Part shown: in pieces, positions 23,191 to 44,424 of the stretch | Numbering within the stretch: position 1 is the first letter of the stretch | How the letters are laid out: each line of letters starts with the position of its first letter | Assembly (NCBI GenBank): GCA_947259495.1 | Contig: CAMYLV010000016.1 | Coordinates: 44,505-108,504 of the forward strand | Source: an uncultured Desulfobacterales bacterium | Lineage (GTDB): Bacteria; Desulfobacterota; Desulfobacteria; Desulfobacterales; JAHEIW01 | DNA: 64,000 nt | Reading direction: 5' to 3' | Program-made: the position numbers and the translations under genes | Notes under the pieces: generated by a model | Told to the model about the DNA's origin: nothing | What the model saw: only the letters and a program-made list of their open reading frames with translations | The model's database searches: none

Positions 23191-23222
23191 AAAAAAATAC
23201 GCACCGATGCTATTCGGTGGTA

Positions 23223-25619: not shown

Positions 25620-25735
25620 AATGATTTTTCATCATATCGTGTCTCATATGTTAAAGTAACAGATCAACTCATTGTGCAGATTATCCGAAGGAGCGCAAGA
25701 ACCAGATGAAAACCGCAGTCGATTCTATAGTTGGA

Positions 25736-25817
25736 GAACCATTTCAGATCAGTTGGAGTGGGAGAATCAGAAATTGTTTAGATGCGTTTATACCCAAATC
25801 GATGGGGTTTAGTCAAT
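25736..25817 (+). repeat. Island-boundary direct repeat, copy c
   Basis: The 30-bp core 25788-25817 is identical to 8000-8029. It is preceded by two GTTGGAG boxes (25730-25736, 25752-25758). Confidence 0.75.
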
Positions 25818-27303: not shown

Positions 27304-28728
27304 TCAGATGGGATGCGGTGCATCCCACCAACCAATAACAGTGCCGTATCGCTGCCACCGGAGCCCTTCCCGGCGTTCAATTTCTCTGATCCAATCTCCC
27401 AGAGCGGAAGCGTGATGGATCACAAGAGGCGTGCTGTGGGGGGGTAGGACATCGTTTTGCAGGCCATACAGGTAAATGGTTTTTTGAATTTCGGCTGCGG
27501 TCTCTTCGGTATCCCATGCGGTGGGATGGATAAATCCGTGGTTGGCCCCTTCCCTGCTTGAATATCCGAATGCATCTCCAAATTCTTCTTTGAGCTGCCG
27601 CATCAGTCGTATGGCCTGCAGATTTTTTGCAACACTCAATCCCTTGTTCAGATTTCGCAGGATGCGGTCATCAAATGACTCAAATCCGATTGAACTCAAT
27701 AACACAAAAAGGCCACGCCGGGCGGCAACCGCCAACACCGCTCTTAAATGCTGAATCCCGGAAATGAGCCCATCTGCCCTTAAGGTCAGATTGATCTGTG
27801 ATATTCCGATGTGCCGCGAATGGACCGCACTCAGTAAGTCGGAAAGAACCGGCAGCGGATATTCATTAATGAGTTCAAAGGGTATCTTTCTACCATCCGG
27901 TGCCTCAGGCAGACAGCGGATTTGCTGGATCACCGTTTCTGTGTCCAGCGTGCCTTGAAAGCCTTTGTCTACGGCCACGTCGCAAAAGCTGCAGCCACGC
28001 ATGCGAAGCCTGGTTGCTTTGTCCTGGCCTCTGCTGACGGAAGCCGGATAATCGATGCGGGGTTCGGTGGTGCGGGCTGCATGGGGGCAGCCGATGTGTT
28101 GTAAAATCTGTCCCGTCCTGACATTTAAGGGTGCCAGTCCATCTTTTGCGAGTATGTAGATATTCTCCCAGCGCACCCTCCCCAGGTAATTGGGATCCCA
28201 AACTTTCGGGGCATTTTGTCTGACGATGCCATCCGCGTCCACAACCAAAAGCCCGGGGATGGACAATACGTCATTCGTATCCAGACGATTTAGCAACGGG
28301 AGCACCTGCTCTGCCGGCCCCTGCAAACCGTAGCTGAAGGATTCCCACAAACCCTTAAACCGATGGGGATGATCCCGCCAGTCCCTTTCTCCTGAAAAAT
28401 CAACGTTTGCCTGCGGACCCGCCAGAATGGTGACGGCCCCCTCGGCCTTCAGCTCAGCGGCCAGGGAGAAAAGATCTTCGCGGCCACTCAAAGCGGAAAA
28501 GCCGATGATGGGTCTGTGGACGCCAAAATAATCTGCCAGTACCTTTTTCAGCGCAATCCGGTCATCTTCCCGACTGACGGCGATCACGATGCACTCACAG
28601 GCGCTGTGGTCTTCGATGATGGTGGCCGCCATCTGGGGACCCAGAAGACCGTAAGTCTCACCTTTGAAAAAGCTGGTAATGACGGCCATTTTTTTTGCGG
28701 GACGGTATGTTGTGCGGAGGGCTGTCAT
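27304..28728 (-). CDS. B12-binding-domain-like / radical-SAM-like protein with non-canonical Cys spacing
   Basis: N-terminal Rossmann-like segment. HIGCPH...(31 aa)...GCSFCDV replaces a compact CxxxCxxC. A TIM-barrel-like region follows. Confidence 0.5.
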   Translation of the reverse strand: MTALRTTYRPAKKMAVITSFFKGETYGLLGPQMAATIIEDHSACECIVIAVSREDDRIALKKVLADYFGVHRPIIGFSALSGREDLFSLAAELKAEGAVTILAGPQANVDFSGERDWRDHPHRFKGLWESFSYGLQGPAEQVLPLLNRLDTNDVLSIPGLLVVDADGIVRQNAPKVWDPNYLGRVRWENIYILAKDGLAPLNVRTGQILQHIGCPHAARTTEPRIDYPASVSRGQDKATRLRMRGCSFCDVAVDKGFQGTLDTETVIQQIRCLPEAPDGRKIPFELINEYPLPVLSDLLSAVHSRHIGISQINLTLRADGLISGIQHLRAVLAVAARRGLFVLLSSIGFESFDDRILRNLNKGLSVAKNLQAIRLMRQLKEEFGDAFGYSSREGANHGFIHPTAWDTEETAAEIQKTIYLYGLQNDVLPPHSTPLVIHHASALGDWIREIERREGLRWQRYGTVIGWWDAPHPI

Positions 28729-28899: not shown

Positions 28900-29397
28900 T
28901 TAAAATTGATTCTCCAACGCAGCGGCATCCTTGCTCGCGGAAGATACCCGTTCCGCTGCCTTGCGCCGCTTGGAGATGCTCACTTTATCGGCTTCAACAA
29001 AGTCCACGGCTTTTTCCTCACAGAATCGGACACACTGCGGATCGCCGTCACAGAGGTCGCACTTGAAGACCTTTCTGTCGGTAGGATTAAATATCATGGC
29101 ACCGAAAGGACATGCGCTCACACAGGAACGGCATCCAATGCAGACATCATAATCCACCACGACCCTTTCCAATTCCGCATTGCGTGAGATCGCCTTAACC
29201 GGGCAAACATTCAAACAGGGTGCATCCTGACACTGCTGGCAGGACATCGGGATATACAGACCTTCGGCCTCCCATTTAACCACCCGGATCCGGCTTCTGG
29301 CAGGATTCGATATTCCATCATGCGAAACAGCGCACACAAGCTCACACAGCTGACAGCCCGTGCACTTCTGGTGATCTATATATAGCACTTTAGCCAT
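28900..29397 (-). CDS. Poly-[4Fe-4S] ferredoxin-like AOR electron-transfer subunit
   Basis: Four Cys clusters (CTGCQLCELVC, CQQCQDAPC, CIGCRSCVSACP, CDLCDGDPQC). It is adjacent to the AOR gene. TAGGAGG RBS. Confidence 0.85.
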   Translation of the reverse strand: MAKVLYIDHQKCTGCQLCELVCAVSHDGISNPARSRIRVVKWEAEGLYIPMSCQQCQDAPCLNVCPVKAISRNAELERVVVDYDVCIGCRSCVSACPFGAMIFNPTDRKVFKCDLCDGDPQCVRFCEEKAVDFVEADKVSISKRRKAAERVSSASKDAAALENQF

Positions 29398-29455: not shown

Positions 29456-31396
29456 TTACAGCATATGGGACGGCTCATTTTCCAGGCCGAGGTTTTTCAA
29501 GGTCTCTTTTTTAGGAACACCCTCTCGATCGAGTCCCTGGTGCTTGTATAATTCATCGACCATCTTGACGAATTTTTTCTTGTCGATCGTCAGACCGATC
29601 ACATCGATGGCGCCGCGTTTGCAGGGCTCATCGAAATAACGGTGGTTCAACATATCGCCTTTCTCAAGATCGTTGCGGGTTAACCCTTCCCTTAAGTTGA
29701 AGAGTCTTTCGATCATGTTGCATCGTCGGGCGGCCTCCCAGATCTCTTCGGGTGTCATTTCGAGTCCGGTATTATAATAAAGCACTTTTGACCAATCCTC
29801 GAAATTGGGCAGTGTCGGTCCCAGGAAGGTTGTATGATATTTGCAGATTCCGAGACAGTCGACGCCCATGAAACAGTTTTCCTGCCAGAAAACCTGCCAG
29901 GGTTTGCCGACATATTCGGTATGCTCGGAGCTCAGCGGCCCGTCATAGGGTACGGGGCTGCCGTAAATCTTCCTTAAAACCTTTTCCGGCAGATGGTATA
30001 AATCGATGGCCGGCCTGCTCCTCAAATGGTCCGAACCCCTTGACGCGGTGGCAACATTGAGCGCCAGTGCCGGTGTGGGCCGTTCATCCGAATGCAAATT
30101 GCTCATGCCTTTGACCTGAACAAGATAATCAAAAGATTTCTTCCCGATCTTTTTCGAGGCTGGAATTCCGCCGTCGGCAAGTGCATCTGCCAGCCAGCCT
30201 TTGCGGTAGCAGATCCGTTCAACCATTTCCAGGACCACCTTGTCATTACCCCAGCTCAGATCGAGCCCATCGGTTTCTTTGTCGGTAATGATACCCAGCT
30301 CGTAGAGCTCCATAGCCCAGGAAATAAGGCTGCCGGTTTCAAGATTATCCATCCCGAACTGATTGACCAGATAATTGCCGGTCAGAACCGTCTCAGCCCG
30401 GGGTGTGTCGGTCTCGGCCCCAAATGCCCCCAGAGAGGTGTATTCGGGACCTTCATCGTATTTTCCGGCCAGGGGGCCTCCCGGAATTTTATACTGGGCG
30501 CGGCAATGGACCTGGCAGCCGAAGCAACCCGTCATATGATGGGGTCCCATTGACTCTTCAGCAATTTCATCAATACGCTCGGGTTCGATGTCATCGGCAT
30601 ATTCACACTGATTGTATTGAAAATTTCGGGTCCGGACACCGCCCCAGCAATTCGTCGCACCCCAGATGAAAGGGGTCCCTAACACACCCTGGGTTTGGTT
30701 CACCTTGGCGCTCACGATTTGATCGATGAAGCGTTTATTGTATTCCAGAGCTTCAACCGGATGGGCAATCTGGATGTCCATGGTCCCGCGGGCAGCAACA
30801 GCCTTCAGATTCTTGGAACCCATGACACATCCCATACCCGTGCGACCGCCGGAATTTTTGATTCCCGTCATCACGTTGGCAAACCGAACCAGATTTTCTC
30901 CGGCCGGCCCGATAACGCAACTTTTGACTTCCTCGTCTCCCAGATCTTCCCGGATGGCCCACTGGGTGTCGGTTACGGATTTACCCCAGATATCGCGCGC
31001 GTCGCGAATTCCGATTTCGCCGTTGTTAATCGAGATATAAACGGGATGTTCGGCCTTGCCTTTGATGACCAGATGGTGAAAGCCTGCCCAGGCCAGCTCG
31101 GGTGCAAAAAACCCGCCCATGTTCGTGCTGCCCAGCAATCCGGTCAGCGGCGATTTGGCCATAATATGCGTTCTGGCAGTTGCGGAAGCGCAGGTGGCGG
31201 TCAGAATACCGCCGCTGATCAACAGGGTGTTTGCAGGCCCCAGCGGATTACATCCCTTTTTTGTATGGTTATACAGCAGATAAGCATCCAGTCCGCGGCC
31301 GCCCAAAAATTTCTTGCGGATATCGAGCGGAATCGGTTTGGTTTCGACATCACCGGTGGTGAGATCGATGTATGCGATCTTTCGGTTTAACGCCAT
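29456..31396 (-). CDS. aor: Tungsten-type aldehyde:ferredoxin oxidoreductase
   Basis: 646 aa with AOR N-terminal and pterin-binding domain patterns (GGRGL...LISGG..., GLDxxS, CxxC region). Confidence 0.9.
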   Translation of the reverse strand: MALNRKIAYIDLTTGDVETKPIPLDIRKKFLGGRGLDAYLLYNHTKKGCNPLGPANTLLISGGILTATCASATARTHIMAKSPLTGLLGSTNMGGFFAPELAWAGFHHLVIKGKAEHPVYISINNGEIGIRDARDIWGKSVTDTQWAIREDLGDEEVKSCVIGPAGENLVRFANVMTGIKNSGGRTGMGCVMGSKNLKAVAARGTMDIQIAHPVEALEYNKRFIDQIVSAKVNQTQGVLGTPFIWGATNCWGGVRTRNFQYNQCEYADDIEPERIDEIAEESMGPHHMTGCFGCQVHCRAQYKIPGGPLAGKYDEGPEYTSLGAFGAETDTPRAETVLTGNYLVNQFGMDNLETGSLISWAMELYELGIITDKETDGLDLSWGNDKVVLEMVERICYRKGWLADALADGGIPASKKIGKKSFDYLVQVKGMSNLHSDERPTPALALNVATASRGSDHLRSRPAIDLYHLPEKVLRKIYGSPVPYDGPLSSEHTEYVGKPWQVFWQENCFMGVDCLGICKYHTTFLGPTLPNFEDWSKVLYYNTGLEMTPEEIWEAARRCNMIERLFNLREGLTRNDLEKGDMLNHRYFDEPCKRGAIDVIGLTIDKKKFVKMVDELYKHQGLDREGVPKKETLKNLGLENEPSHML

Positions 31397-31397: not shown

Positions 31398-31658
31398 TTA
31401 GGATACCCCCTTTTCCTTTAATTTTTCTTCCGCCAATTTCTTGTTGACCGCCCAGACCGGACCCCGAATACGGGGAAAATTGGGATTGACCCAATGGATC
31501 CGGTATTCCATTCCGCAGGTCGGGCATTTGGCGGTCTTGCTGCCCTTTTCCGGCTGAATTCTTTCCATGCAGCTCGGATTATGGCATCTGAACTTACCGT
31601 AGGTCCGGGTCTTGCGAAGACTTTCGGCCGTTGAAAGGCCTTGCTTATCGGTCGCCAT
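31398..31658 (-). CDS. Zinc-ribbon small protein coupled to aor
   Basis: AGGAGA RBS. CHNPSC...CPTC. Its stop lies 1 nt before the aor ATG. Confidence 0.55.
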   Translation of the reverse strand: MATDKQGLSTAESLRKTRTYGKFRCHNPSCMERIQPEKGSKTAKCPTCGMEYRIHWVNPNFPRIRGPVWAVNKKLAEEKLKEKGVS

Positions 31659-31796: not shown

Positions 31797-31814
31797 TGTT
31801 CATCATCATGAACA
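31797..31814. promoter_or_regulatory. Dyad operator candidate Op1 (TGTTCAT-N4-ATGAACA)
   Basis: Perfect 7-bp inverted repeat in the iclR/aor divergent spacer. Confidence 0.55.
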
Positions 31815-31974
31815 AATCGTCTTTCTAAGCTTGATACCACAAAGCGTTTTTTTGATCAAGCGAAAATATCGCTCTCATCTTATTATTTCGACCTGTATTT
31901 GGTACTCAAAGTATCAATTACAGATTAAATCCTGACTATAATGAGATCCTTAATTTGGACTTTACGAAATTGTC

Positions 31975-31990
31975 GTTCATTGAGATGAAC
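31975..31990. promoter_or_regulatory. Dyad operator candidate Op2 (GTTCAT-N4-ATGAAC)
   Basis: Same dyad, about 45 bp upstream of the iclR start. Confidence 0.55.
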
Positions 31991-32034: not shown

Positions 32035-32838
32035 ATGAAAAAATATGGCGCACCCTCTGTAAAAAAGGCATTTGCCATCCTCGGTGCCATTTCCTCGTCC
32101 AGAGTTGGCCTGGGAGTGAGCGAACTGGCCAAAAACCTCAAGATGGCCAAGAGCACGGTTCATGGGATGGCCTCGGCCCTGGAAGAACTGGGCGCCGTCA
32201 TGCGGGATCCGCTGACCAAAAAATATAAACTGGGTTTTACTCTGCTCGAAATTGGCCGTTCGGCCTACACCCAGATTGATCTCAAAACGTCGGCACGACC
32301 GGTCATGGAAGACCTGATGGAAAAAACCCAGACATCGGTTTTTCTGGGTATCCTGAACTGGGACCATGTGACCATACTGGATATTGTCGAATCCAGACAG
32401 GATCTCAAAATCACAGCCCCCGTCGGCACCACCATACCCATGCTGGCCGGAGCCGTGGGCAAGGTCTTTCTGGCATCCATGGATGACGAGCAGGCCCGCA
32501 AAATCGTTAAATCCAAGGGATTGCCCCGCTTTACGGCCAATTCGATCGTCGATACGGCATCGTATTTTCAGGAGCTAAAGCAAGTCAGTGAACAAGGCTT
32601 CGCCGTTGATGATGAGGAATATATTCTCGGTGTCCGGGCGGTGGCATCACCGCTGATCGGTCTGGGACAATTGAGGTCGGCCATCTGGATCGTCGGGTTC
32701 AAGGCCAGTCTTGATGAAAAAAAGATGAAAACACTTACCGGCGAAACCCACAAGGCCGCCGCGACCATTAGCCGGCGGATTCAACAACAGCTCATTGCTC
32801 CCCAAAACGGCCAATTTAGTGAAAGACAAGTGATTTGA
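32035..32838 (+). CDS. IclR-family transcriptional regulator
   Basis: N-terminal wHTH (KAFAILGAISSSRVGLGVSELAKNLKMAKSTVHGM) and a C-terminal IclR effector domain. Confidence 0.85.
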   Translation: MKKYGAPSVKKAFAILGAISSSRVGLGVSELAKNLKMAKSTVHGMASALEELGAVMRDPLTKKYKLGFTLLEIGRSAYTQIDLKTSARPVMEDLMEKTQTSVFLGILNWDHVTILDIVESRQDLKITAPVGTTIPMLAGAVGKVFLASMDDEQARKIVKSKGLPRFTANSIVDTASYFQELKQVSEQGFAVDDEEYILGVRAVASPLIGLGQLRSAIWIVGFKASLDEKKMKTLTGETHKAAATISRRIQQQLIAPQNGQFSERQVI

Positions 32839-34240
32839 CCGTAACCGGAAATACCTGACCGGCCACCAGGGGCTCACCGATATCGACCCAATCACCTTCT
32901 TTGAGCGTTAGCTCATCAAGAGTCAGTAAATTGGTTTTTAAATCCGTTTCACGGCGAATAACGTTTCCGACACCGCACGCAATGTCGGTTCCAAAAATTA
33001 AAATAATCGGGAGGCCGTTCTTTATTGAATCGGCATGGGCCGCTTCAATTGATCTGGCAAACAATTCCAGCCGGGGATAGGACGCCTGAACCGGATTCTT
33101 AAAATATAGCGCCACAACGTCCTCGCCTTCGACCCGGTCAAATCGCCGGAAGGCGGCATTTATCTGCGATACAATATGTTCAAAACTTAAATTTGATGGG
33201 TCTACATCCACCCGAAGGACCGGCACGTTTCTGATCGGAAACACAATCTGATCGTCCATAAAACAAGAGCTGCCCGATATGGATAATGAATAGGCACCGG
33301 CACCAATGACGGTGGCTCTGATTTTATTGGCAGGTTCAACAACCGCGGCAGTCAATCCGGGTGTCAAGGCATTAATTTGTTCGGCCAGAATTTTCCCGAT
33401 ATCGTCATAATGGTTTAACCCGCCGTACATCAGTTCAGCAACCCCACCGGAAAATGAATATTCGTCAATGCGGCCGGGAAGTTGCAGATCATCGGTCTGT
33501 ATAAGCTGCCGGGCTAAGCGGGATTTGGCGGGCCCCGTGATCACCTCGAACAAAATCTTGCCAAACGTTGCGGCGATGCTTTTGATCTCTGCTTTTGAAA
33601 TGCGATCCCCGATTGTATAGTTCAGCCCTAAATGCTGCATCACGGCCTGGGCCGGTTGGTCGATGCGCCAGATTTTTCCTTTGGAGCTGACGCCCAGCAC
33701 TCGCCCACCGACAGAGATGCAACTGGTCGACAGGGTCTGCCCATTTTTGATGACGGCGATGTTTGATGTTCCGCCGCCGATATCGCAGGATAAGATGGTC
33801 TTATTTCGATCTTTAGATCGCGCTACCGCGCCGGAACCCATTGCGGCGATTAAGCTTTCGAAATTGGGTCCTGCTGTGGCCGCTACAAATTTTCCGGCAT
33901 CATTGGATAACGCTTCGGCAATTTGCCGGGCGTTTTTCTTGCGAGCAGACTCGCCGGTGACAATGACCGCGCCGGTTTGGATATCTTTCGGATGAATTCC
34001 CGCACGTTCATATTCTGCTTTAAAAAATTCAGTTAATTTACCGATATCAATTGTTTTATCGTCTGATAAAGGCGTATGAATGATATTGCCTTCATAGACG
34101 ATGTGTCTTTGCTGAATTTTAAAGCGACGGGTAACCGAACGCTCATCTTTTTTCAGCAAGAGTTTGGAAAAGACCAGATGACTGGTTGAACTCCCGACAT
34201 CCACCCCAACTGAAAGTATGTCAAATTCGTTTGTTTCCAT
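32816..34240 (-). CDS. EutA-like ASKHA-fold ATPase (reactivase/activase-like)
   Basis: LSVGVDVGSSTSHLVFS...VIVTGESA...DIGGGTSNIAV matches the EutA family pattern. Its 3' end overlaps the iclR 3' end convergently. Confidence 0.7.
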   Translation of the reverse strand: METNEFDILSVGVDVGSSTSHLVFSKLLLKKDERSVTRRFKIQQRHIVYEGNIIHTPLSDDKTIDIGKLTEFFKAEYERAGIHPKDIQTGAVIVTGESARKKNARQIAEALSNDAGKFVAATAGPNFESLIAAMGSGAVARSKDRNKTILSCDIGGGTSNIAVIKNGQTLSTSCISVGGRVLGVSSKGKIWRIDQPAQAVMQHLGLNYTIGDRISKAEIKSIAATFGKILFEVITGPAKSRLARQLIQTDDLQLPGRIDEYSFSGGVAELMYGGLNHYDDIGKILAEQINALTPGLTAAVVEPANKIRATVIGAGAYSLSISGSSCFMDDQIVFPIRNVPVLRVDVDPSNLSFEHIVSQINAAFRRFDRVEGEDVVALYFKNPVQASYPRLELFARSIEAAHADSIKNGLPIILIFGTDIACGVGNVIRRETDLKTNLLTLDELTLKEGDWVDIGEPLVAGQVFPVTVKSLVFH

Positions 34241-34247
34241 AATCAAA

Positions 34248-34404
34248 GGTTCAGAGGTTCTGCGTTCTGCGTTCAGGCTTCAGGGTTTCGCGTTCAGAGG
34301 TTCAGGGTATCGGGCCTTGACTAGACGGAGCTCGTCGCAGACTGTCGGTTGGCGATGGCGACTATCTACCGTTATCTAACCTTTGAACGTTGAACCTTTG
34401 AACC
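34248..34404. repeat. Word-repeat imperfect palindrome (GGTTCAGAGG words)
   Basis: GGTTCAGAGGTTCTGCGTTC (34248-34267) matches the reverse complement of 34385-34404 at 17 of 20 positions. There are additional GTTCAG repeats. Confidence 0.5.
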
Positions 34405-34442
34405 CGTGACTCAAGCCAGAAACCTTTATTCGGGGCAACGGT

Positions 34443-35141
34443 TTAGCTATTTTTATTTGGGTGCGATTTTGAACCATCGCCCAGCCCGGCTCTTACCCGC
34501 TTTCGCACCCCGGACGCACCGCCCGGGCGCCAGTCTTTGGATGAGCGGATTTCTTCATAGCAGTGCAGTTTGTCCATCTTTTTGAGCCGCGCAACAATCT
34601 GGGTCCAGGCGCAAGGCGTGCCCTGGCCAACTTCACAGAACCCCCCTTTGGAACCGCCGCAGGGGCCGTTAAAAAGACTTTTCGCGCAGCGCGCAACCGG
34701 ACATATGCCGCCGGTATGAATCAGAATACAATTGCCGCAACCTTTGCATTTTTCGGTCCATGAACCCGGTTTATCCGATGCGCCCAGAAAGGTCGTATTT
34801 AAGGCCGGAATCACCGGCACCGGTTCAAGTTCATCTGCCAGGGTTTGAACACCGGCGCCGCAGGCCAGCGACAGAACTGCATCGGTCCCGGGGGGAATCT
34901 CCTGATAATCGTGCACCAGATCCCGCTCACACTGCCTGAGGATTGACCCGACCACAAATTTCGGCGGTGGACCCTGATAATGCCGTATCTGAGAGAGCTC
35001 GCGACTGAGCTGTTCAGCCTCCCTTTCGCCGCCCGAAAGACAGACCGTCACGCAACTGCCGCAGCCCAGAACAAGCACCTGTTTGTAGTCTTTGATGGCA
35101 GAAACTATTTCTTCCAGCGGTTTTAAATCTCCAACGATCAT
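34443..35141 (-). CDS. MetV-like protein (methylene-THF reductase C-terminal domain family), Cys-rich
   Basis: VLVLGCGSCVTVCLSGG..., CKGCGNC, ICPVARCAKSLFNGPCGG. No metF is nearby. Confidence 0.6.
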   Translation of the reverse strand: MIVGDLKPLEEIVSAIKDYKQVLVLGCGSCVTVCLSGGEREAEQLSRELSQIRHYQGPPPKFVVGSILRQCERDLVHDYQEIPPGTDAVLSLACGAGVQTLADELEPVPVIPALNTTFLGASDKPGSWTEKCKGCGNCILIHTGGICPVARCAKSLFNGPCGGSKGGFCEVGQGTPCAWTQIVARLKKMDKLHCYEEIRSSKDWRPGGASGVRKRVRAGLGDGSKSHPNKNS

Positions 35142-35153
35142 CTGTACCTCAAT

Positions 35154-35546
35154 TTAAGTTTTATTTTCTTCGCCCGGTTTTGAGGGCAGCATCTTGGCGG
35201 CCGCCGCATATTGCCGGTGCTTTGGACAGAGTGTTTCACTGGCTGAATTCAGTTTGCTTTCCATTTTTTGCTGAAAGGCCGGCGAATAAAGTACTTCGCC
35301 GCATAACCGGCAATGAATCAAATCAAGCGCAATGACGTCATCCCATTCGCCCACTAAAAGATGCTGGAACTCGATGGCACGCTGGGGGCAAACTCGCCAG
35401 CATTGACCGCAGCGCGCACATTTGGTCATATTGTGTTTGAGTGTCCGCCTGCCGCCCTGATCGTCAAACCCCAATGCTGAAGCCGGGCAATTTTCCACGC
35501 AGGCCAGACATCCGTTACAATTATCATTAACTCGAAAATAAGACAT
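35154..35546 (-). CDS. 2x[4Fe-4S] ferredoxin-domain protein with Cys-containing C-terminal extension
   Basis: CNGCLACVENCP and CARCGQCWRVCP. Confidence 0.75.
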   Translation of the reverse strand: MSYFRVNDNCNGCLACVENCPASALGFDDQGGRRTLKHNMTKCARCGQCWRVCPQRAIEFQHLLVGEWDDVIALDLIHCRLCGEVLYSPAFQQKMESKLNSASETLCPKHRQYAAAAKMLPSKPGEENKT

Positions 35547-35723
35547 TAGTTTTCACCGGTATCTATTTAAAATATTAAACTTTTTAATTTATAAATGAAT
35601 CAAGCATAGCGCATAGGGCATAGCGTCCGAATGAAAGAAGAAAAAAATGGTATATTTTAACGCCATGCGCTTTGTCCTTTGCCTTCATTTTTTAAAATTT
35701 GAAACGTTCAATTTAGGAAAAAC

Positions 35724-36011
35724 CTAGCCGCCGCCGACTAAAAGCATTATCTTAACCTTATCACCGTCTTTCAGCGGCCGCTGTGACAATTTATTTCGGG
35801 GTACAAAGCCTTCGTCATTGAGCATCACCTGGATTGTCATATCCAGCTCGCCGCTGTCGTCCAACAATACTTTACGCGCCTTGCTACCGGTTCGGTTTAC
35901 AATATGCGCAATGAGATCCGCCACCGAGCCGTCAGCCATTTCCAGTTCGGTCTTTCTGCCGATTAATTTGGACAGGGACGGCAACCCGAGAGATTCTACC
36001 TGGATTTTCAA
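35724..36011 (-). CDS. MoaD/ThiS-family ubiquitin-like sulfur-carrier protein
   Basis: 95 aa ending ...LLVGGG. AGGAGG-N5-TTG start. Confidence 0.7.
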   Translation of the reverse strand: MKIQVESLGLPSLSKLIGRKTELEMADGSVADLIAHIVNRTGSKARKVLLDDSGELDMTIQVMLNDEGFVPRNKLSQRPLKDGDKVKIMLLVGGG

Positions 36012-36040
36012 TGAAACCTCCTAAAAAATGCTTGATGACG

Positions 36041-36167
36041 GAGCGTCAAGCTTTGGCGTGACTTGAAGACCAGCCCACCGGGCTTTGAAGAGCGCCTCTT
36101 CGGGGCTTTAAGTCAGAGGCAAATTTTATTTTACCTTTAGCGAAGCGCTCTTCAAGTGAAACGCTCC
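36041..36167. repeat. Structured imperfect palindrome (CTTGAAGA words)
   Basis: GGAGCGT...TGACTTGAAGA is complementary to TCTTCAAGTGAAACGCTCC. Inner hairpins: GAAGAG-CGC-CTCTTC and GCCC-ACC-GGGC. Confidence 0.55.
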
Positions 36168-36216
36168 TATAGTACCAGCGCACTGCGCGGGGACGACCCG
36201 ATAATCCTGAGCGGGA

Positions 36217-36705
36217 TTATCGCTTATGATGTCGTGTCGCCCGGGCGTAAGATTTGGCAGCCTGGCGCATGCGACCGGTGCTGACGTTGCTGGTTGCCTG
36301 ATAGTCAACCGCTCTGGTATAGCAAAAGCGCACGCATTGCGGGTCGCCATCACACAGATTGCATTTGAAAACGCGGCCCCGCCCTGTATTCCATCGCATG
36401 GCACCAAAGGGACAGGCTGCAACACACATTTTGCAGCCGATGCAGAGGTCATGGTTGATGGTGACGCTTTCAAGCACCTCATCGCGGTAGATGGCATCTT
36501 GGGGACAGACTTCCAGACAGGGAGCATCTTCACACTGCTGACAGCTCATGGGTATATAAACGCCGATGTGTTCCCATTTAACCACCTGAATCCGGGCCAA
36601 AGAGGGGTTGCTCACCCCATAATGCCTGACCGAACAAACGAGCTCGCAGTTCCGGCAACCGGTGCACTTTTCCGGATCTATCGTCAGTAATTTCTTGGCC
36701 ATCAT
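36217..36705 (-). CDS. Paralog of the AOR poly-ferredoxin subunit
   Basis: Collinear with 28900..29397 (KCTGCRNCELVC, CQQCEDAPC, CIGCKMCVAACPFGAM, FKCNLCDGDPQCVRFC). No AOR catalytic gene follows. Confidence 0.8.
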   Translation of the reverse strand: MMAKKLLTIDPEKCTGCRNCELVCSVRHYGVSNPSLARIQVVKWEHIGVYIPMSCQQCEDAPCLEVCPQDAIYRDEVLESVTINHDLCIGCKMCVAACPFGAMRWNTGRGRVFKCNLCDGDPQCVRFCYTRAVDYQATSNVSTGRMRQAAKSYARATRHHKR

Positions 36706-36765: not shown

Positions 36766-36781
36766 GTTCACTTCAATGAAC
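36766..36781. promoter_or_regulatory. Dyad operator candidate Op3 (GTTCAC-N4-ATGAAC)
   Basis: Lies about 60 bp upstream of the 36705 start. Confidence 0.5.
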
Positions 36782-36894
36782 GATTAAGATGATTTATACT
36801 ATCAGCTAAAACTGTTTTGTCAAGCAGTATGTTGTTAGATATTAAATTACATGGCTAAAGTATGGAGTTGATTCATATCAATTGACGATAAATC

Positions 36895-36910
36895 GTTCAT
36901 CATAATGAAC
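36895..36910. promoter_or_regulatory. Dyad operator candidate Op4 (GTTCAT-N4-ATGAAC)
   Basis: Perfect dyad in the spacer between the ferredoxin operon and the ABC importer. Confidence 0.55.
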
Positions 36911-37346
36911 TTTATTATTCTAACTGTATCGCCGAGCAATATACATGAATCCACCGCTGCGGGGACCATACCAAATAATAAAACATCAAAGACCAATTGC
37001 CAGTTCTCGGAATAATCAATATCGATCCAACCTGAATATGCCATTGTAAATAATGCTCAGGCATAACAAATTTCTTGACAACCCGCCACGGTTCATATAG
37101 CTACCACAGAGTAGCTATTTCATAGCTATATTGCCTGCACTTAGATGATCTATATAAATGGTTGCCAGGCTAAACTTAATCGCTTATTCAATAACGTTGA
37201 GAAAGGCGATTCTCATCCACAAACCGCTCGGAGCCGCTTGCCACCGTTACCCCGCAGCGGTAAAATCCGCAGCACCGTTTCCAAATAAATGCTTTAACCT
37301 GTTTTCTCCCGTATGCTGGGGGGAAGCCCACAAAAGGAGGCGTCTA

Positions 37347-38627
37347 ATGAAACGTAACGTATTCTTACTCTGTCTTGCGATAGTCGCTGTGTTTGTCTGG
37401 ATGATACCCGGGCCGACTGTCTATGCTGCCGAGCCGATTGTTATCGGCGTCCCCACTTCCATGGGTTTTCTGGAAGGCAAAGAATCTCACAAGGCGGTTC
37501 AAATTGCGGTCAGCGAGATTAACGCCCAGGGCGGTGTCAATGTCGGCGGTACCAAACGGCTTTTAAAGGTCGCCGCAACAGACCTGCGGGATGCCGCTCC
37601 CGGCGTCCCCGTACCGGAAGCATTGCTGGGTCTGGAGAAAATCATCCTGGAAAAGAAACCGACTGCCATTGTCGTGGGGCCATTTCGTTCGGAAGCTTTG
37701 ATCGCAGGCATGGATATCATTGCCAAATACAAGGTGCCGATGCTGGGCACCATTGCGATGAGCCCCGGTTCCGAGAAAAAAATCAAAGGAGATCCGGAAA
37801 AATATAAATATATTTTTAGAACCTGCCTCAATGCGGTGCATCTGGTGAAATATTTGGCCGGCAGCATGGCGCTGATCAATAAGGAATTCGGGTTCAACAA
37901 AGTTTTCGTTATGCATCAAGACGTTGCCTGGGCTAGAGCAACAGCAGGATTTGTCAAAAAAGTGTATTTCGACAAGGCCGGCTGGGAGGTTTTAGGTATG
38001 GAGGCTTATCCAACAGGCACCTCTGATTTTTCATCCGCCCTGATGAAAGCGCGGGCCAAGGGTGCTCAAGTCATTATGCCGATATTTGATATGCCCCAGA
38101 GCGGCATTCTGGTGAAACAATGGAAATCAATGAAAGTGCCCGCTTTGATGGCCGGCTTTATCTCACCCCTGGCCGGATCGGAAGCCTGGAAGACTTTTGA
38201 TGGTAAAATCGGCGGCGCCATGAACAGCATCTTTGAGCTGGGCAGTGCCATTTATTCCCCGAAAGTACCCAAGTCGAAGGAATTTTTTAATAAATATAAA
38301 AGAACGTTTGGCAAACCCGTCCAGGGCGGCCACGGCATTGCGCCCTCCTATGAATCGGTCTATATCCTGGCCGAAGCGATTGAGCGGGCCGGCAGCCTGG
38401 ACCCGGACGCCATTGTAGCGGAACTGAAGAAAACAGACCGCAATGGTGTCATGGGACGTGTTCGATATGACGAGGGCAATCAGGCCGTCTTTGGTACCGA
38501 CCCCGGTGAAACAGCCATCGGCCTGGTTTTTCAGTGGACAGATGACGGGCAGCGCAGGATCGTATTCCCGGCGTCTGTTGCCGAGGCCAAAATCCAGCTG
38601 CCGCCCGGATTAAAGTCTCTGAAATAG
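37347..38627 (+). CDS. ABC transporter substrate-binding protein (Liv/branched-chain-amino-acid type)
   Basis: AAGGAGG-N6-ATG at 37347. Signal peptide ...TVYAAEP. Peripla_BP_6-like pattern. The listed 37158 start is an artefactual extension. Confidence 0.85.
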   Translation: MKRNVFLLCLAIVAVFVWMIPGPTVYAAEPIVIGVPTSMGFLEGKESHKAVQIAVSEINAQGGVNVGGTKRLLKVAATDLRDAAPGVPVPEALLGLEKIILEKKPTAIVVGPFRSEALIAGMDIIAKYKVPMLGTIAMSPGSEKKIKGDPEKYKYIFRTCLNAVHLVKYLAGSMALINKEFGFNKVFVMHQDVAWARATAGFVKKVYFDKAGWEVLGMEAYPTGTSDFSSALMKARAKGAQVIMPIFDMPQSGILVKQWKSMKVPALMAGFISPLAGSEAWKTFDGKIGGAMNSIFELGSAIYSPKVPKSKEFFNKYKRTFGKPVQGGHGIAPSYESVYILAEAIERAGSLDPDAIVAELKKTDRNGVMGRVRYDEGNQAVFGTDPGETAIGLVFQWTDDGQRRIVFPASVAEAKIQLPPGLKSLK

Positions 38628-38810
38628 GCGCTCGGGGTCCGCAAAATTAACGTGTCCATGTTCGATTAGCTTAAAGCGGAAGATTGATATATTCATACCG
38701 CTTAGCAGGGTAATGTTGCGGGTCATCGACCACCCGTTCACCTGTACCAAACCGCAGCAGAAATAGAGGTTTAAACAGGTTACCATAATAAAACTGGAGA
38801 AAACGATTTA

Positions 38811-39683
38811 ATGTTCATCGGCACCGTGCTTTACGCTGTGGTAAACAGCGTTATTTTAGCGTTGTTGGCGATCGGTTTCAATTTAACTTTCGGCATCAGC
38901 GGTGTGGCGAATTTTGCCTACGGGGCCCTGTATATCATGTCCGCCTACCTGAGCTGGATGCTCTTGAATCTTTTGGAGCTCCCGTTTCTACTCGCAGCTG
39001 TCATATCCATCCTCATTACCACTCTGTGCGGGGCACTGATGTACCGTTTCGTATTGCTGCGTGTGCGGGGTCAGGCGCTTTCCGAAGTGATCGCAACCTT
39101 TGGCATTGGTCTGGCCATACTGGAGTTGTTCCGATACCTGGGCTTTGTGGGATTTGAGTACACCCTGCCCGTGCTTATCGACCATAGCTTTGTTATTTTC
39201 GGCGCCTATATTGACATGCAACGCATTTTAATCGTTATTGTCGGTGCGGTGCTGGTCATTTTCCTATGGCTTTTTACCCACCATACGTCTATCGGACTCG
39301 CTTTCAGAGGGATTGCCCAGGATGAACGCACGGCCCTTAGCCTGGGCATCAATTCAGATCGAATCGCAACTTTAAGCGTCTCCTTTGGTGCCGGTCTGGC
39401 CGCCATCGCAGCCACCATTATCATCCCGCTTGGAAGCATATCCCCAAGCGAAGGATACGATGTACTGATCAAAGCGCTTGCGGTGTGCATTATCGGCGGC
39501 CTGGGCAGCACCGGCGGTGTTATTGTTGCCAGTTTTGTCATCGGTTTTGCCGAACGCTTTACAGACAGTTATATCAGCTCGCACTGGACGATGATTGTCA
39601 GCCTGGCGGCGATACTGATCGTGCTGACCATTAAACCTTCCGGTCTCTTCGGCAAACAAAAAGAGCTGGAAGAGCGAATTTAA
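38811..39683 (+). CDS. ABC permease, LivH-like
   Basis: Polytopic membrane protein with the LivH pattern (GISGVANFAYGALYIM...). Confidence 0.85.
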   Translation: MFIGTVLYAVVNSVILALLAIGFNLTFGISGVANFAYGALYIMSAYLSWMLLNLLELPFLLAAVISILITTLCGALMYRFVLLRVRGQALSEVIATFGIGLAILELFRYLGFVGFEYTLPVLIDHSFVIFGAYIDMQRILIVIVGAVLVIFLWLFTHHTSIGLAFRGIAQDERTALSLGINSDRIATLSVSFGAGLAAIAATIIIPLGSISPSEGYDVLIKALAVCIIGGLGSTGGVIVASFVIGFAERFTDSYISSHWTMIVSLAAILIVLTIKPSGLFGKQKELEERI

Positions 39684-39687
39684 AAAA

Positions 39688-40737
39688 GTGAAATCGGATT
39701 TCGGAATGCGGAATGCGCAGCTAAACTCAACCGATTCTAAACACCGGCGCAAAGAACGCATCGATCGCGGCATCAAAGCCCGCTCCAGCGATATCTTTGC
39801 CCTGTCGTCCTGGCGTGAGATGCTCTATCTGGCGGCACCCAGATGTATACCCATCGTCGGGTGCCTGATGCTGCCGCTGGTGCTCGGTATTTACTGGCAA
39901 AAGGTCTTGCTCAGTGTGGCGGTTTTTGCGCTGTTGGCCATCAGCTGGGATATCTTGGAGCAAAGCGGCATGATATCGCTGGGACAGGCACTTTTTTTCG
40001 GCATGGGCGCTTACACGGCCGGCGTTTTCAATCACTATTTCGGCTGGCCACCATTTTTAACCATCCCCTTTGCTTCCATTTTAGGTGGGTTGATCTCTAC
40101 CGTCATTCTGCTTCCGGTGCTGCGGCTGAGAGGCATTTACTTTTCCATGGTGACCCTGATCATCCCGCTGATGCTGGTACGGATTGTCGAAGCCACCAGG
40201 ATCTTTGGGGGCACCGAAGGGTTGAGTGGCATTACGCCCCTGCCCTCAAAATGGCTCGAACTCTATCTGATTGTCGGCGCCCTGTTGGGGGCCCTCTTTG
40301 GCTTCCGCCGGATGATGGGATCAGATTACGGTCTGGTCTTAAAGGCCATCAGAGACAATGATCGATCGGTCATGAATGCGGGCATCAATGTATATTGGTT
40401 TAAGGCGCAGGCACTGTTTATTGCCAGTGCAATCGGGGCTTTTGCAGGCGCCTTTATGACCCACGTCTATATGTTCGTCGGTATGCCGGTCTTTGCGCTG
40501 GATTATTCCATCCTGCCCATTGCGGCTGCGGTGGTGGGCGGACCCGGCACACTGGCGGGTGCCACCCTGGGCGCTTTTATTCTGGTTCCGCTGTCAGAAA
40601 TCTTGCGTGGCATCGGTGGGCTGCGCATCGTAATCTACGGACTGTTTCTGGTGGTGTTTATCGTTGCCCTGCCGGAAGGCATCTTCCACTATATTCAGCG
40701 CAAATATCACCAGTTTGAACGCTGGGTGGAGGTGTAG
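39688..40737 (+). CDS. ABC permease, LivM-like (start uncertain)
   Basis: The GTG is 4 nt after the livH stop. LivM-like core (SLGQALFFGMGAYTAG). Confidence 0.8.
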   Translation: MKSDFGMRNAQLNSTDSKHRRKERIDRGIKARSSDIFALSSWREMLYLAAPRCIPIVGCLMLPLVLGIYWQKVLLSVAVFALLAISWDILEQSGMISLGQALFFGMGAYTAGVFNHYFGWPPFLTIPFASILGGLISTVILLPVLRLRGIYFSMVTLIIPLMLVRIVEATRIFGGTEGLSGITPLPSKWLELYLIVGALLGALFGFRRMMGSDYGLVLKAIRDNDRSVMNAGINVYWFKAQALFIASAIGAFAGAFMTHVYMFVGMPVFALDYSILPIAAAVVGGPGTLAGATLGAFILVPLSEILRGIGGLRIVIYGLFLVVFIVALPEGIFHYIQRKYHQFERWVEV

Positions 40738-40739
40738 GC

Positions 40740-41492: not shown

Positions 41493-41512
41493 TTTTCATT
41501 TAAAAATGGCCC

Positions 41513-41611
41513 TTTTTCCGATGAGCTGCGTTCTCCGCGGGTTTCAGCCCTCGACGTACTCTAAGTACGCCTCAAGCTGAAACCCTTGTGCGGCCTTGCT
41601 CATCGAAAAAA
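41513..41611. repeat. Nested palindrome inserted between the two ABC ATPase genes
   Basis: Outer arms TTTTTCCGATGAGC and GCTCATCGAAAAAA (13 of 14). Inner perfect 10-bp arms GGGTTTCAGC and GCTGAAACCC (41539-41548, 41576-41585). Core GTACT-CTA-AGTAC. Confidence 0.6.
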
Positions 41612-41736
41612 TTGCTCATTTCCATATTGAAAATCAACTATTGCTGTGCTTTGGGAAAACCATTCTCGGATGGGCGAAAATAATTAGGCAGCTGAAAATC
41701 GTATTTCTTTTGTTCCAGCGGATTAAGGATTTGAAA

Positions 41737-42483: not shown

Positions 42484-42492
42484 CACTTGCCA

Positions 42493-44414: not shown

Positions 44415-44424
44415 TGGAGGCGCT

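Follow-up and report, generated by a model that had tools for sequence, protein, structure and literature searches.

A five-gene operon encoding a EutA-family ATPase is the probable retained tail of a tungsten AOR operon in an uncultured Desulfobacterales bacterium

The 64-kb stretch of DNA analysed here (the window) carries on its minus strand a five-gene operon in which none of the ORFs encodes a catalytic protein. On balance, we favour the view that this operon is the retained tail of a tungsten AOR operon, that it belongs to a single IclR regulon, and that its products now serve the AOR encoded nearby (AOR1), with the EutA-like ATPase as an activase or reactivase. The tail ties an ATPase known only as a repair factor of B12 enzymes to an unusual tungsten enzyme in its vicinity.

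Gene calls in the window show that the five ORFs are real and lie at the minus-strand coordinates given in an earlier note on this DNA, and domain searches bear out the domains which that note assigned to all five proteins. They are listed below, followed by the genes of the AOR1 operon:

36217-36705, minus strand: polyFd2, an AorA-type polyferredoxin of 162 aa (Pfam Fer4_11 and Fer4_7)
35724-36011, minus strand: ThiS/MoaD-like beta-grasp protein of 95 aa, with a VGGG C-terminus
35154-35546, minus strand: Fd130, a 2x[4Fe-4S] ferredoxin of 130 aa (Pfam Fer4 families)
34443-35141, minus strand: DUF5981/MetV-like Cys-rich protein of 232 aa with 14 Cys (PF12225)
32816-34240, minus strand: EutA-family ASKHA ATPase of 474 aa (PF06277, EutA, 5.5e-140)
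31398-31658, minus strand: small86, a zinc-ribbon protein of 86 aa with four Cys, its gene translationally coupled to that of AOR1
29456-31396, minus strand: AOR1, catalytic subunit of an AOR/WOR-family tungsten enzyme (AFOR_N and AFOR_C domains)
28900-29397, minus strand: polyFd1, an AorA-type polyferredoxin, partner of AOR1
27304-28728, minus strand: 474-aa protein resembling cobalamin-dependent radical SAM enzymes (AlphaFold2/Foldseek)

PolyFd2 has 16 Cys forming four [4Fe-4S] cluster motifs and is 59% identical to polyFd1, in agreement with its earlier description as a paralog of the AOR electron-transfer subunit. The ThiS/MoaD-like protein exceeds the cutoff of the ThiS family PF02597 (28.1 bits, cutoff 22.5), stays under that of TIGR01687 moaD_arch (28.9 bits, cutoff 49.5), is matched by PDB 2cu3 (ThiS) at 5e-4 and shares 29% identity with a ThiS paired with ThiF in a related locus (L021). 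Fd130 combines two 4Fe-4S motifs with a C-terminal CxxC...CP extension, and PF12225 (DUF5981/MTHFR C-terminal) covers residues 111-205 of the MetV-like protein at 1.3e-33. The Fd130 and DUF5981 genes are 12 bp apart in the window and overlap in L001, and the DUF5981 gene overlaps the start of the EutA-like gene in L014, L015 and L028; this spacing counts in favour of a coupling of the last three genes. No metF, eutB or eutC occurs among the annotated ORFs of about 24-46 kb of the window. Gaps of 200 nt are also present within the operon, so that separate transcription units are possible.

The earlier note correctly described the operon as devoid of a catalytic subunit. This is, however, not a feature of the system, because the catalytic gene was lost in this lineage together with its small upstream neighbour. 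In eight non-redundant sister-lineage loci (L028, L029, L032, L033, L038, L039, L045 and L056), a small86'-AOR2 gene pair is found directly upstream of the orthologous polyFd2 gene, and ThiS, Fd130, DUF5981 and EutA genes follow. Identities with the window proteins are 65-74% for polyFd2 and 75-77% for EutA; AOR2 is 56% identical to AOR1, and small86' is a paralogue of small86 (47% identity), itself annotated as an 86-aa gene in L001-L003. Using tblastn, AOR2 was not found in the 64-kb window, where AOR1 is the sole AOR, and the rest of the genome may encode it. These gene orders indicate a seven-gene ancestral operon, small86'-AOR2-polyFd2-ThiS-Fd130-DUF5981-EutA, whose two head genes were deleted in this lineage. 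Judging from its position, polyFd2 was the former dedicated partner of the lost AOR2.

The regulatory features of the region are the following:

31798-31990: operator-like dyad pair, GTTCATCATCATGAAC (31798-31813) and GTTCATTGAGATGAAC (31975-31990), between the small86-AOR1 operon and iclR
32035-32838, plus strand: IclR-family regulator (HTH_IclR and IclR_C domains)
36766-36910: operator-like dyad pair, GTTCACTTCAATGAAC (36766-36781) and GTTCATCATAATGAAC (36895-36910), in the divergent promoter region of polyFd2 and the ABC transporter
37158-44139, plus strand: Liv-type ABC transporter (binding protein, two permeases, two ATPases) and acyl-CoA ligase, divergent to polyFd2
42487-44139, plus strand: the AMP-forming acyl-CoA ligase, generic and fatty-acid-CoA-ligase-like

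The window contains exactly four copies of the dyad GTTCA-N6-TGAAC (at 31798, 31975, 36766 and 36895), against 0.03 expected, and none of 100 shuffles reached that number; the dyads shared with the AOR locus that the earlier note had pointed out are therefore real. All four copies fall in two divergent promoter regions. The pair spaced by about 130 nt precedes polyFd2 in the window and small86', the operon head, in related loci, where the 177-nt spacing of the other pair is also kept. The arrangement of the transporter and ligase genes is conserved in L001, L002, L033, L039, L045 and L056. Since the dyads occupy two divergent promoter regions and recur at conserved positions in related loci, the operons form one regulon. 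It comprises the five-gene tail, the small86-AOR1-polyFd1 operon, the Liv-type transporter and the acyl-CoA ligase. The dyads are presumably bound by the IclR-family regulator, whose gene is convergent with the EutA-like gene (the 3' ends overlap by 23 nt). Transcription of the tail would still start from the original promoter/operator region, under the control of IclR, together with the operon running from small86 through AOR1 and polyFd1 to the 474-aa gene.

All comparators are MAGs or metagenome contigs. Among the 22 Desulfobacterales-clade loci with enough sequence, DUF5981 precedes the EutA-like gene in 21 and IclR is its downstream neighbour in all 22, so that the co-occurrence of the five genes, which the earlier note had left to be checked, does extend well beyond this genome. 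Moreover, AOR1 is found beyond IclR in 20 out of 20 loci according to the neighbourhood table. In at least 18 Desulfobacterales MAG loci that lack AOR2, the tail genes remain intact (66-94% protein identity), always alongside the IclR gene and a small86-AOR1-polyferredoxin operon; this retention argues for selection on the tail. Conserved synteny, a shared operator and the AOR2 gene heading the same operon in sister lineages make the link of the five genes to AOR a strong one. In remoter relatives of the AOR clade (L047-L051), no EutA-like, DUF5981 or ThiS gene is found nearby. In L050 this covers some 8 kb on the downstream side of the gene for the membrane-anchored ferredoxin (memFd), and this locus has MoaA, MoeA and MobB instead. 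Thus, the requirement for the ATPase, or else its linkage, is not universal.

AOR/WOR enzymes are known to take on varied accessory modules (PMC12096430). The best PDB matches of AOR1 are 9mqx (3e-86) and 1aor (4e-86), ahead of BamB (5e-59). Its second shell is non-canonical (Glu313 to Thr, Tyr427 to Ser, Tyr452 to Arg) and is kept in 12 orthologues; the Thr in place of the catalytic Glu313 of canonical AORs is also present in AOR2. The best reading is that AOR1 and AOR2 represent a new, uncharacterised AOR/WOR clade with an altered active site. The whole of Fd130 is homologous to the cytoplasmic domain of memFd, encoded in the AOR1 operons of L016 and L027 (27-28% identity, 1e-11 and 3e-13). 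Single-AOR loci possess either memFd (L016) or Fd130 and DUF5981 (window lineage), whereas double-AOR loci possess both. Since its homologue is encoded within AOR operons, we infer that Fd130 is a redox partner of AOR. PolyFd2, Fd130 and the MetV-like protein would then constitute a soluble Fe-S electron conduit for AOR1, in place of the memFd lost in this lineage. The MoaD-like protein may contribute to tungsten-pterin cofactor supply, by analogy with AorD/AorE of Aromatoleum, whose aor operon includes MoaD-like genes (PMC6365974); this precedent agrees with the role suggested in the earlier note.

The EutA-like ATPase, with intact ASKHA phosphate motifs (D14-x-G16, D153-x-GGGT), would have the tungsten enzyme itself as its target and activate or reactivate it at the expense of ATP, by analogy with EutA and ethanolamine ammonia-lyase. 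It could power maturation, cofactor loading or repair, with electrons possibly provided by Fd130 and the MetV-like protein. The 9.4-kb contig L016 keeps IclR, memFd, small86, AOR1, polyFd1 and EutA and has no Fd130, DUF5981 or ThiS; together with the constant adjacency to IclR and the position of AOR1 beyond it, this indicates that the presence of EutA follows that of the enzyme and not that of the electron module. It should, however, be noted that we know of no pterin enzyme that is the target of a EutA-family protein, and that the tungsten cofactor is deeply buried. All NCBIfam EutA equivalogs score under cutoff (at best 400.8 bits for 598), and the nearest relatives outside the clade are stand-alone genes of Asgard archaea, in uninformative contexts.

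Alternatively, the EutA-like ATPase could work with Fd130 and the MetV-like protein as a split reductive activase resembling RACo/RamA or an 'archerase'. ATP hydrolysis, per turnover or per activation, would then push electrons uphill into the tungsten centre, so that the enzyme could reduce, at very low potential, an acid or else an acyl- or aryl-CoA formed by the ligase of the regulon. We regard this as possible but unlikely. The close spacing of the Fe-S and ATPase genes would fit it, as would the uptake system and CoA ligase of the regulon, reminiscent of aryl-CoA reductase regulons, the UbiD/UbiX and HcrABC-like aromatic-catabolism genes nearby and an active site without the aldehyde-oxidation residue Glu313. 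AOR/WOR-family reactions lie near -580 to -650 mV, and BamB requires an energy-coupled electron supply (PMC12096430). However, these AORs resemble Pyrococcus AOR more closely than BamB and lack Cys at the position where BamB has its tungsten ligand, and the membrane ferredoxin and cytochrome c3 encoded in the AOR1 operon of sister lineages suggest electron output, in substrate oxidation, rather than input. The HgdC activator (1hux) is the first Foldseek match of the AlphaFold2 model of the ATPase (pLDDT 75), but the matches are to generic ASKHA folds only, with TM-scores of 0.24-0.34. Moreover, none of the RACo domains of Pfam matches the protein. It also has no conserved Cys, hence no bridging cluster as in HgdC or BcrAD, which excludes that it is by itself an ATPase transferring electrons through an Fe-S cluster. 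The retention of EutA in L016, with neither Fd130 nor DUF5981 nearby, also disfavours such an assembly.

It is rather doubtful that the module serves the 474-aa protein. In this reading, the EutA-like ATPase would draw electrons from Fd130 and the MetV-like protein to reactivate or reductively activate a corrinoid cofactor of the 474-aa protein, in a manner parallel to EutA with ethanolamine ammonia-lyase or to RamA/RACo with corrinoid proteins. To our knowledge, the only characterised EutA-family member is indeed the reactivase of a B12 enzyme, and MetV-type proteins belong to methyl and corrinoid metabolism in acetogens. The 474-aa gene belongs to the same regulon and comes next after polyFd1 in most loci, and the predicted structure resembles cobalamin-dependent radical SAM enzymes (OxsB 1.5e-8, TokK 7e-7; MiaB is also matched). 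Nevertheless, cobalamin binding is only predicted, from a model of pLDDT 65 falling below 50 around a degenerate motif of invariant Cys (C214, C246-x-x-C249), and no cobalamin riboswitch was found. The gene is a member of the AOR1 operon, and the EutA-like gene a member of that of AOR2. L014 does not have the 474-aa gene in an adjacent position, and L021 has it with ThiS, ThiF and cytochrome c3 but no EutA-like gene across the 21 kb examined. The B12/radical-SAM link drawn in the earlier note thus keeps its fold likeness and is weaker than the AOR link. Least probable by far is that the five genes have been functionless since the loss of AOR2 and are becoming pseudogenes. The operon head is deleted, polyFd2 is also gone from L014, L015 and L018, and all tail genes but EutA are missing near AOR1 in L016. 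Yet all five reading frames are preserved both in the window and in many species-level AOR2-less MAGs, the operator pairs are conserved, and the loss is ordered, the AOR2-specific polyferredoxin disappearing first while ThiS, Fd130, DUF5981 and EutA remain.

The five minus-strand open reading frames that the earlier note had assigned to one operon, and the type that it had given to each, were upheld by Pfam and NCBIfam searches.

36705-36217, minus strand: polyFd2, a polyferredoxin of 162 aa with 16 Cys (Pfam/NCBIfam)
36011-35724, minus strand: ThiS/MoaD-like protein of 95 aa, C-terminus VGGG (PF02597)
35546-35154, minus strand: Fd130, a 2x[4Fe-4S] ferredoxin with a C-terminal CxxC...CP extension
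35141-34443, minus strand: DUF5981/MetV-like protein of 232 aa with 14 Cys, MTHFR C-terminal domain (1.3e-33)
34240-32816, minus strand: EutA-family protein (PF06277, 5.5e-140, full length)

As that note had also proposed, no catalytic subunit is present among the annotated genes of the operon, and the upstream neighbour of polyFd2 in the window is a divergent transporter promoter, with no AOR gene. Neither metF nor eutB or eutC was found among the annotated neighbours of the operon in the window; the MTHFR gene metF is likewise missing from the annotated neighbours in the related loci examined. The MetV-like protein matches PF12225 with 114.9 bits (cutoff 23). PolyFd2 carries four [4Fe-4S] Cys motifs in about 160 aa, as expected of an AorA-type protein, and its 16 Cys are placed equivalently in polyFd1 (28900-29397), the polyferredoxin of the neighbouring operon, to which it is 59% identical. 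The ThiS-like protein has the beta-grasp family assignment (PF02597, 28.1 bits, cutoff 22.5) and the C-terminal Gly-Gly of MoaD/ThiS sulfur carriers; it is matched by the ThiS of PDB entry 2cu3 at 5e-4, and its score against the MoaD-specific model TIGR01687 is 28.9 bits, under the cutoff of 49.5. No E1 partner (MoeB/ThiF) and no MoaE was found near its gene in the annotated part of the window. In the related locus L021, a ThiS paralogue (29% identical) is paired with ThiF, beside a 470-aa gene.

The surroundings of the operon comprise the following features.

27304-28728, minus strand: 474-aa protein, past polyFd1, no Pfam assignment
29456-31396, minus strand: AOR1, AOR/WOR family, 646 aa; follows small86 (an 86-aa zinc ribbon) and precedes polyFd1, both on the same strand
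31798 and 31975: dyad pair between iclR and small86-AOR1
32035-32838, plus strand: IclR regulator, immediately downstream of the EutA-like gene and convergent with it
36766 and 36895: dyad pair between polyFd2 and the transporter
37158-44139: Liv-type ABC transporter and AMP-forming acyl-CoA ligase, upstream of the operon and divergent from it

A sister lineage carries the operon in a longer form. It is represented by eight non-redundant loci (L028, L029, L032, L033, L038, L039, which lies on the same contig as L027, L045 and L056), and its EutA-like proteins are 75-77% identical to that of the window. Directly upstream of the orthologous polyFd2, 8/8 of these loci have a small86 paralogue (small86', 47% identical to small86) followed by a second AOR gene, AOR2, whose 642-aa product contains AFOR_N and AFOR_C and is 56% identical to AOR1. 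The genes ThiS, Fd130, DUF5981 and EutA follow polyFd2 in this order. The flanks are as in the window, with the transporter and ligase divergent upstream, together with a 130-nt dyad pair, and with IclR and the AOR1 operon downstream. When the 64-kb window was searched with AOR2 by tblastn, AOR1 alone was returned. The headed sister operons and this search together show that small86' and AOR2 were cleanly deleted in the window lineage, fusing the promoter-operator region to polyFd2, the absence of AOR2 being established for the 64 kb of the window. The seemingly orphan five-gene operon is the tail of a tungsten-AOR operon.

The association of these genes is widely conserved. Database clusters with at least 78% identity to the EutA-like protein number more than 120; the source names given among these matches are all Desulfobacterales or Deltaproteobacteria MAGs, most matches being unlabelled. 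A scan of species-representative genomes yielded 17 loci and a metagenome scan 31 more; the comparators are MAGs or metagenome contigs throughout. Counting non-redundant Desulfobacterales-clade loci with enough flanking sequence, DUF5981 lies directly upstream of the EutA-like gene in 21/22 and IclR downstream of it in 22/22, and AOR1 is found past IclR in all 20 of 20 (counted by eye from the locus table). The five genes are clearly not confined to this genome; such a confinement is what the earlier note had named as fatal to its reading.

The two operons also share an operator-like sequence. In the 64-kb window, the motif GTTCA-N6-TGAAC has exactly four occurrences, for an expectation of 0.03, arranged as one pair at each operon; the shared dyads that had been noticed from the sequence were thus borne out. 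Their spacings of about 177 and 130 nt recur at equivalent sites in related loci. The dyads are best read as the predicted operator of the IclR protein, which would make both operons and the transporter-ligase operon members of a single regulon. In NCBIfam, generic models only are matched by the ligase and by the binding protein of the transporter, with no substrate indicated. An Rfam scan of positions 25-45 kb revealed no Moco, tungsten-cofactor or cobalamin riboswitch, the sole match being a sub-threshold one attributable to chance. The 3' ends of iclR and of the EutA-like gene overlap by 23 nt (32816-32838), and the called genes overlap in L002 and L003 too.

Three lineage states can be distinguished by their AOR genes and by their ferredoxins, which include memFd, a membrane-anchored ferredoxin.

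AOR, ferredoxin and DUF5981 genes in the three lineage states.
Sister lineage: AOR1 and AOR2; memFd heads the AOR1 operon, Fd130 and DUF5981 are in the AOR2 operon
Window lineage: AOR1 only; Fd130 and DUF5981, no memFd
L016: AOR1 only; memFd, with no Fd130, DUF5981 or ThiS on the 9.4-kb contig

AOR2 and memFd are gone from the window lineage, which retains AOR1, polyFd2, ThiS, Fd130, DUF5981 and EutA. L016, in which memFd also heads the AOR1 operon, retains memFd, small86, AOR1, polyFd1, IclR and EutA. Within the window lineage, some members (L014, L015 and L018) are also without polyFd2, the AOR2-specific subunit, and the dyads are found there directly upstream of ThiS. Over its full length, Fd130 is a homologue of the memFd cytoplasmic domain. 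Single-AOR genomes thus have either memFd or Fd130 with DUF5981, and double-AOR genomes have both, a distribution in keeping with memFd on the one hand, and Fd130 with DUF5981 on the other, acting as alternative electron conduits of these AORs. The EutA-like gene is retained in all three states, which suggests that its product has the enzyme as its target and is not an obligatory component of one conduit. More distant AOR-clade relatives (L047-L051) have no EutA-like gene nearby, which counts against a universal need for the ATPase; in L050, MoaA, MoeA and MobB are adjacent in place of that gene. The memFd proteins (L016, 2775-3794; L027, 5827-6858) have 339-343 aa, with about 5-6 predicted hydrophobic segments in a membrane part without Pfam domain and a C-terminal domain made of 2x[4Fe-4S] and CxxC...CPxC.

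AOR1 contains AFOR_N (7.8e-72) and AFOR_C (2.7e-95) domains, and its closest PDB matches are the AORs of 9mqx (3e-86) and 1aor (Pyrococcus furiosus, 4e-86), BamB being more distant (5e-59). Its CFGCQVHC motif aligns with Cys288/291/295 of the Pyrococcus enzyme. Besides these [4Fe-4S] cysteines, Thr243, Glu311, Tyr312 and His448 (Pyrococcus numbering) are retained, and three residues are substituted, Glu313 by Thr, Tyr427 by Ser and Tyr452 by Arg, invariantly across 12 orthologues. AOR2 also has Thr at the Glu313 position (GPDFTS; EGPEYTS in AOR1). Cys322 is the tungsten-ligating residue of BamB and YdhV. No Cys occurs in the corresponding region of AOR1 (residues 299-345, the 47 residues after the cluster motif), the Cys322 position being placed by the near-identical numbering of the phmmer match and not by a residue-level alignment. 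Homologues of BamD-I are not present in the loci examined. Membership of AOR1 in the BamB group was rejected on these two points and on its greater closeness to the Pyrococcus AOR. In known AORs, Glu313 is universally conserved and has an acid-base role (2025 review, PMC12096430). The substituted second shell and the missing tungsten-ligand Cys indicate that AOR1 and AOR2 are neither canonical AORs nor of the BamB type, and point to an uncharacterised AOR/WOR clade that would catalyse a different reaction. Both paralogues, AOR1 of the window and AOR2 as encoded in L039 (8831-10759), are changed at Tyr427 and Tyr452, with no Cys in the BamB/YdhV tungsten-ligand region. AOR1 is unusually conserved, its identity reaching 98% between MAGs that have EutA-like proteins of 81-87% identity.

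Residues 10-476 of the EutA-like protein align with positions 3-475 of the 475 of the PF06277 profile. All four NCBIfam EutA equivalog cutoffs are missed, the best score being that of NF007992 (400.8 bits, cutoff 598) and the three others amounting to 240-292 bits for cutoffs of 769-952. Genes eutBC were found neither in the window neighbourhood nor in 26 related loci, in which the neighbours are IclR, AOR and Fe-S genes. The nucleotide-binding motifs D14-x-G16 and D153-x-GGGT are kept in 129-132 of 132 aligned relatives, and among these same relatives none of the four Cys of the protein is conserved. The protein is probably an active ATPase devoid of Fe-S cluster; its identification as an Fe-S 'archerase' was ruled out by the lack of any conserved Cys. 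An AlphaFold2 model (pLDDT 75) retrieved generic ASKHA structures (HgdC, Ppx/GppA, MreB) with TM-scores of 0.24-0.34. In Pfam, at E<=0.01, the sequence matches EutA, MreB and FtsA only, and no RACo family. A PDB sequence search gave no match for the EutA-like, MetV-like or 474-aa proteins, and exact-sequence look-up of the window EutA-like protein and of a database entry identical to it (100%) returned no record.

Beyond the Desulfobacterales clade, the closest relatives of the EutA-like protein are Asgard archaeal proteins of 600-720 aa (46-54% identity). The other relatives listed in a search of 50%-identity clusters, including any bona fide EutA, are about 32-40% identical. Because the Asgard proteins are closer than these, their kinship with the EutA-like clade hints at inter-domain gene transfer, and also that this branch has a non-eut role. 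A MetV-EutA 'Rosetta stone' fusion was considered for the 670-720-aa relatives and rejected, since Pfam recognises no domain in their 200-aa N-terminal extension; the window contains no match to a profile made from 86 of these extensions. The Asgard relatives (L022, L023, L024; P0391-P0510) span Heimdall-, Thor-, Odin- and Promethearchaeota, carry a CxxC...H motif in the 200-aa extension and are encoded by stand-alone genes in uninformative contexts.

AOR/WOR enzymes recruit differing accessory modules, such as AorC, Wor1ABC and BamD-I (PMC12096430). The closest described system is the aorABCDE operon of Aromatoleum. As in Aromatoleum aromaticum AorABC(DE), a tungsten AOR, a four-cluster polyferredoxin (AorA) and MoaD-like genes are associated in an operon, and an Fe-S chain joins the enzyme to a third redox module. 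However, an AorC-type FAD subunit is lacking here and is replaced by a 2x[4Fe-4S] ferredoxin, a MetV-like protein, a EutA-family ATPase and an 86-aa zinc ribbon. Moreover, the catalytic gene precedes that of the polyferredoxin, its product is devoid of Glu313, Tyr427 and Tyr452, and the catalytic gene of the five-gene operon is gone from the window. The BamB-BamC pair resembles the locus in that a polyferredoxin gene comes after the gene for an AOR/WOR catalytic subunit of about 650 aa, in an obligately anaerobic Desulfobacterota host with CoA ligases and aromatic-catabolism genes nearby, but the polyferredoxin has here four clusters instead of three, and BamDEFGHI homologues are missing. With the MetV subunit of MetFV, the window protein shares a C-terminal PF12225 domain (1.3e-33) in a Cys-rich chain of about 230 aa, which would suit an Fe-S subunit for electron transfer. 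In contrast to MetV, no metF accompanies it in the loci examined, and its gene is translationally coupled to those of a ferredoxin and of a EutA-family ATPase; its partner is presumably an Fe-S protein or the tungsten enzyme, and not a flavoprotein.

Within this framework, polyFd2, Fd130 and the MetV-like protein would serve AOR1 as a soluble electron conduit. The MoaD-like protein would contribute to tungsten-pterin supply, as proposed for the MoaD-like AorD and AorE of Aromatoleum, which are regarded as tungsten-cofactor maturation factors (PMC6365974). The EutA-family ATPase would activate or reactivate the tungsten enzyme at the expense of ATP. Like EutA, the ethanolamine ammonia-lyase reactivase, it is a stand-alone PF06277 protein of about 470 aa with intact ASKHA motifs. 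It differs in its sub-cutoff equivalog scores, in having neither eutBC, a eut operon nor a recognised AdoCbl enzyme nearby, and in the conservation of its gene beside a tungsten-enzyme locus.

RACo and RamA, which reductively activate corrinoid enzymes, spend ATP to activate a cofactor at very low potential, and RamA contains a 2x[4Fe-4S] domain. Since the Fd130-DUF5981 and DUF5981-EutA gene pairs are closely spaced or overlapping in several genomes, the Fe-S proteins may similarly feed electrons to the tungsten enzyme during an ATP-dependent activation. The resemblance to RACo/RamA, an ASKHA ATPase with ferredoxin-type Fe-S modules, is architectural only: the modules are here separate polypeptides, RACo domains gave no Pfam match, and a corrinoid protein is no more than putative here. 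In a more radical variant, ATP-coupled electron injection would occur at every turnover; the absence of conserved Cys in the EutA-like protein argues against direct electron transfer of the HgdC/BcrAD type. In its most specific form, the proposal is that the EutA-family ATPase, the ferredoxin and the MetV-like protein make up an ATP-driven reductive activase of a new tungsten clade dedicated to the very low-potential reduction of an imported acid or of its CoA ester, which we regard as improbable. Class I benzoyl-CoA reductases rely on BcrAD-type ATPases and class II enzymes on electron bifurcation. If true, the reductive activase would be a third energy-coupling strategy for tungsten/Fe-S reductases beside these two, and the first function of the EutA family outside B12 enzymology. 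To our knowledge, the only characterised member of this family is a repair factor of a B12 enzyme. An action of the ATPase on the tungsten enzyme, as an activase or a reactivase, would widen the scope of the family to the activation or repair of pterin enzymes.

The reactions of AOR/WOR tungsten enzymes include some with the lowest potentials in biology, and many clades of these enzymes are uncharacterised. The locus defines such a clade, widespread in marine-sediment Desulfobacterales, with an altered catalytic second shell and an undescribed accessory set (zinc-ribbon subunit, two polyferredoxins, soluble or membrane ferredoxin, MetV-like and MoaD-like proteins, EutA-family ATPase). Literature searches on EutA with AOR, tungsten or sulfate reducers, and on DUF5981/MetV-like proteins, retrieved nothing relevant, and no description was found of this accessory set combined with an altered active site and a two-operon regulon. 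What is new here is the accessory set, in particular the EutA-family ATPase, the MetV-like protein, the soluble or membrane ferredoxin and the zinc ribbon, together with that active site and that regulon. The lineage variants (double AOR, single AOR with a soluble module, single AOR with a membrane module) amount to a natural experiment showing which parts travel together, and lead to testable predictions for the heterologous expression of oxygen-sensitive tungsten enzymes.

The earlier note had linked the operon to the nearby radical-SAM-like gene with a B12 domain, that of the 474-aa protein. The fold resemblance holds: the model (pLDDT 65) resembles cobalamin-dependent radical SAM enzymes and MiaB, with OxsB at 1.5e-8, and the CxxxCxxC motif is reduced to C246-x-x-C249 and a distant invariant C214. 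The tie to the EutA-like gene is weaker than that to AOR, because the 474-aa gene, which comes after polyFd1 in most of the loci, is non-adjacent in L014, because in the 21 kb of L021 a gene of this type occurs with ThiS, ThiF, cytochrome c3 and a truncated AOR and no EutA-like gene, and because no cobalamin or Moco riboswitch was detected. The cytochrome is a tetrahaem c3, whose gene comes after the 474-aa-type gene in L021 (10001-11413) and in sister loci L027 (10001-11425) and L028.

The wider neighbourhood looks like an aromatic-acid catabolism island. Positions 147-6277 encode a UbiD-family decarboxylase (cut by the window start), a response regulator, an aryl-CoA-type ligase, a UPF0261 protein, a PAC_bac/LpdD-like small protein and a UbiX flavin prenyltransferase; this set recurs beside the AOR cluster in L002, L003, L014 and L021. 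L027 and L028 have in addition HcrABC-like (4-hydroxybenzoyl-CoA-reductase-type) genes, a second ligase and a second IclR. The next 19 kb or so (6400-25800) are probably an inserted island. Their GC content is 36-44%, for about 50% in the flanks, and they separate sets that adjoin in L002 and L003, namely UbiX, LpdD-like, UPF0261 and ligase on one side and the 474-aa gene and AOR on the other. Genes in this segment encode NYN/LOTUS, caspase-domain, CsgG-SH3, S41 peptidase, SpoIIE phosphatase, beta-lactamase-fold, ankyrin and PilZ proteins. At the other end of the window (56303-63587), class III PHA synthase genes (PhaC-like, 57364-58557; PhaE, 58614-59549) are found with genes for a double-GAF protein, a PaaK-type ligase (60780-62117) and a 478-aa Fe-S protein (62151-63587), none of which has a link to the five-gene operon. 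Finally, the acyl-CoA ligase gene is followed at 44368-47998 by genes for an ArsR regulator, an ArsP-type permease, a thioredoxin-domain protein and an SBF/ACR3-type transporter, likely an arsenic or metalloid resistance cluster; an ArsR gene comes after the ligase in L001 and L039 too.
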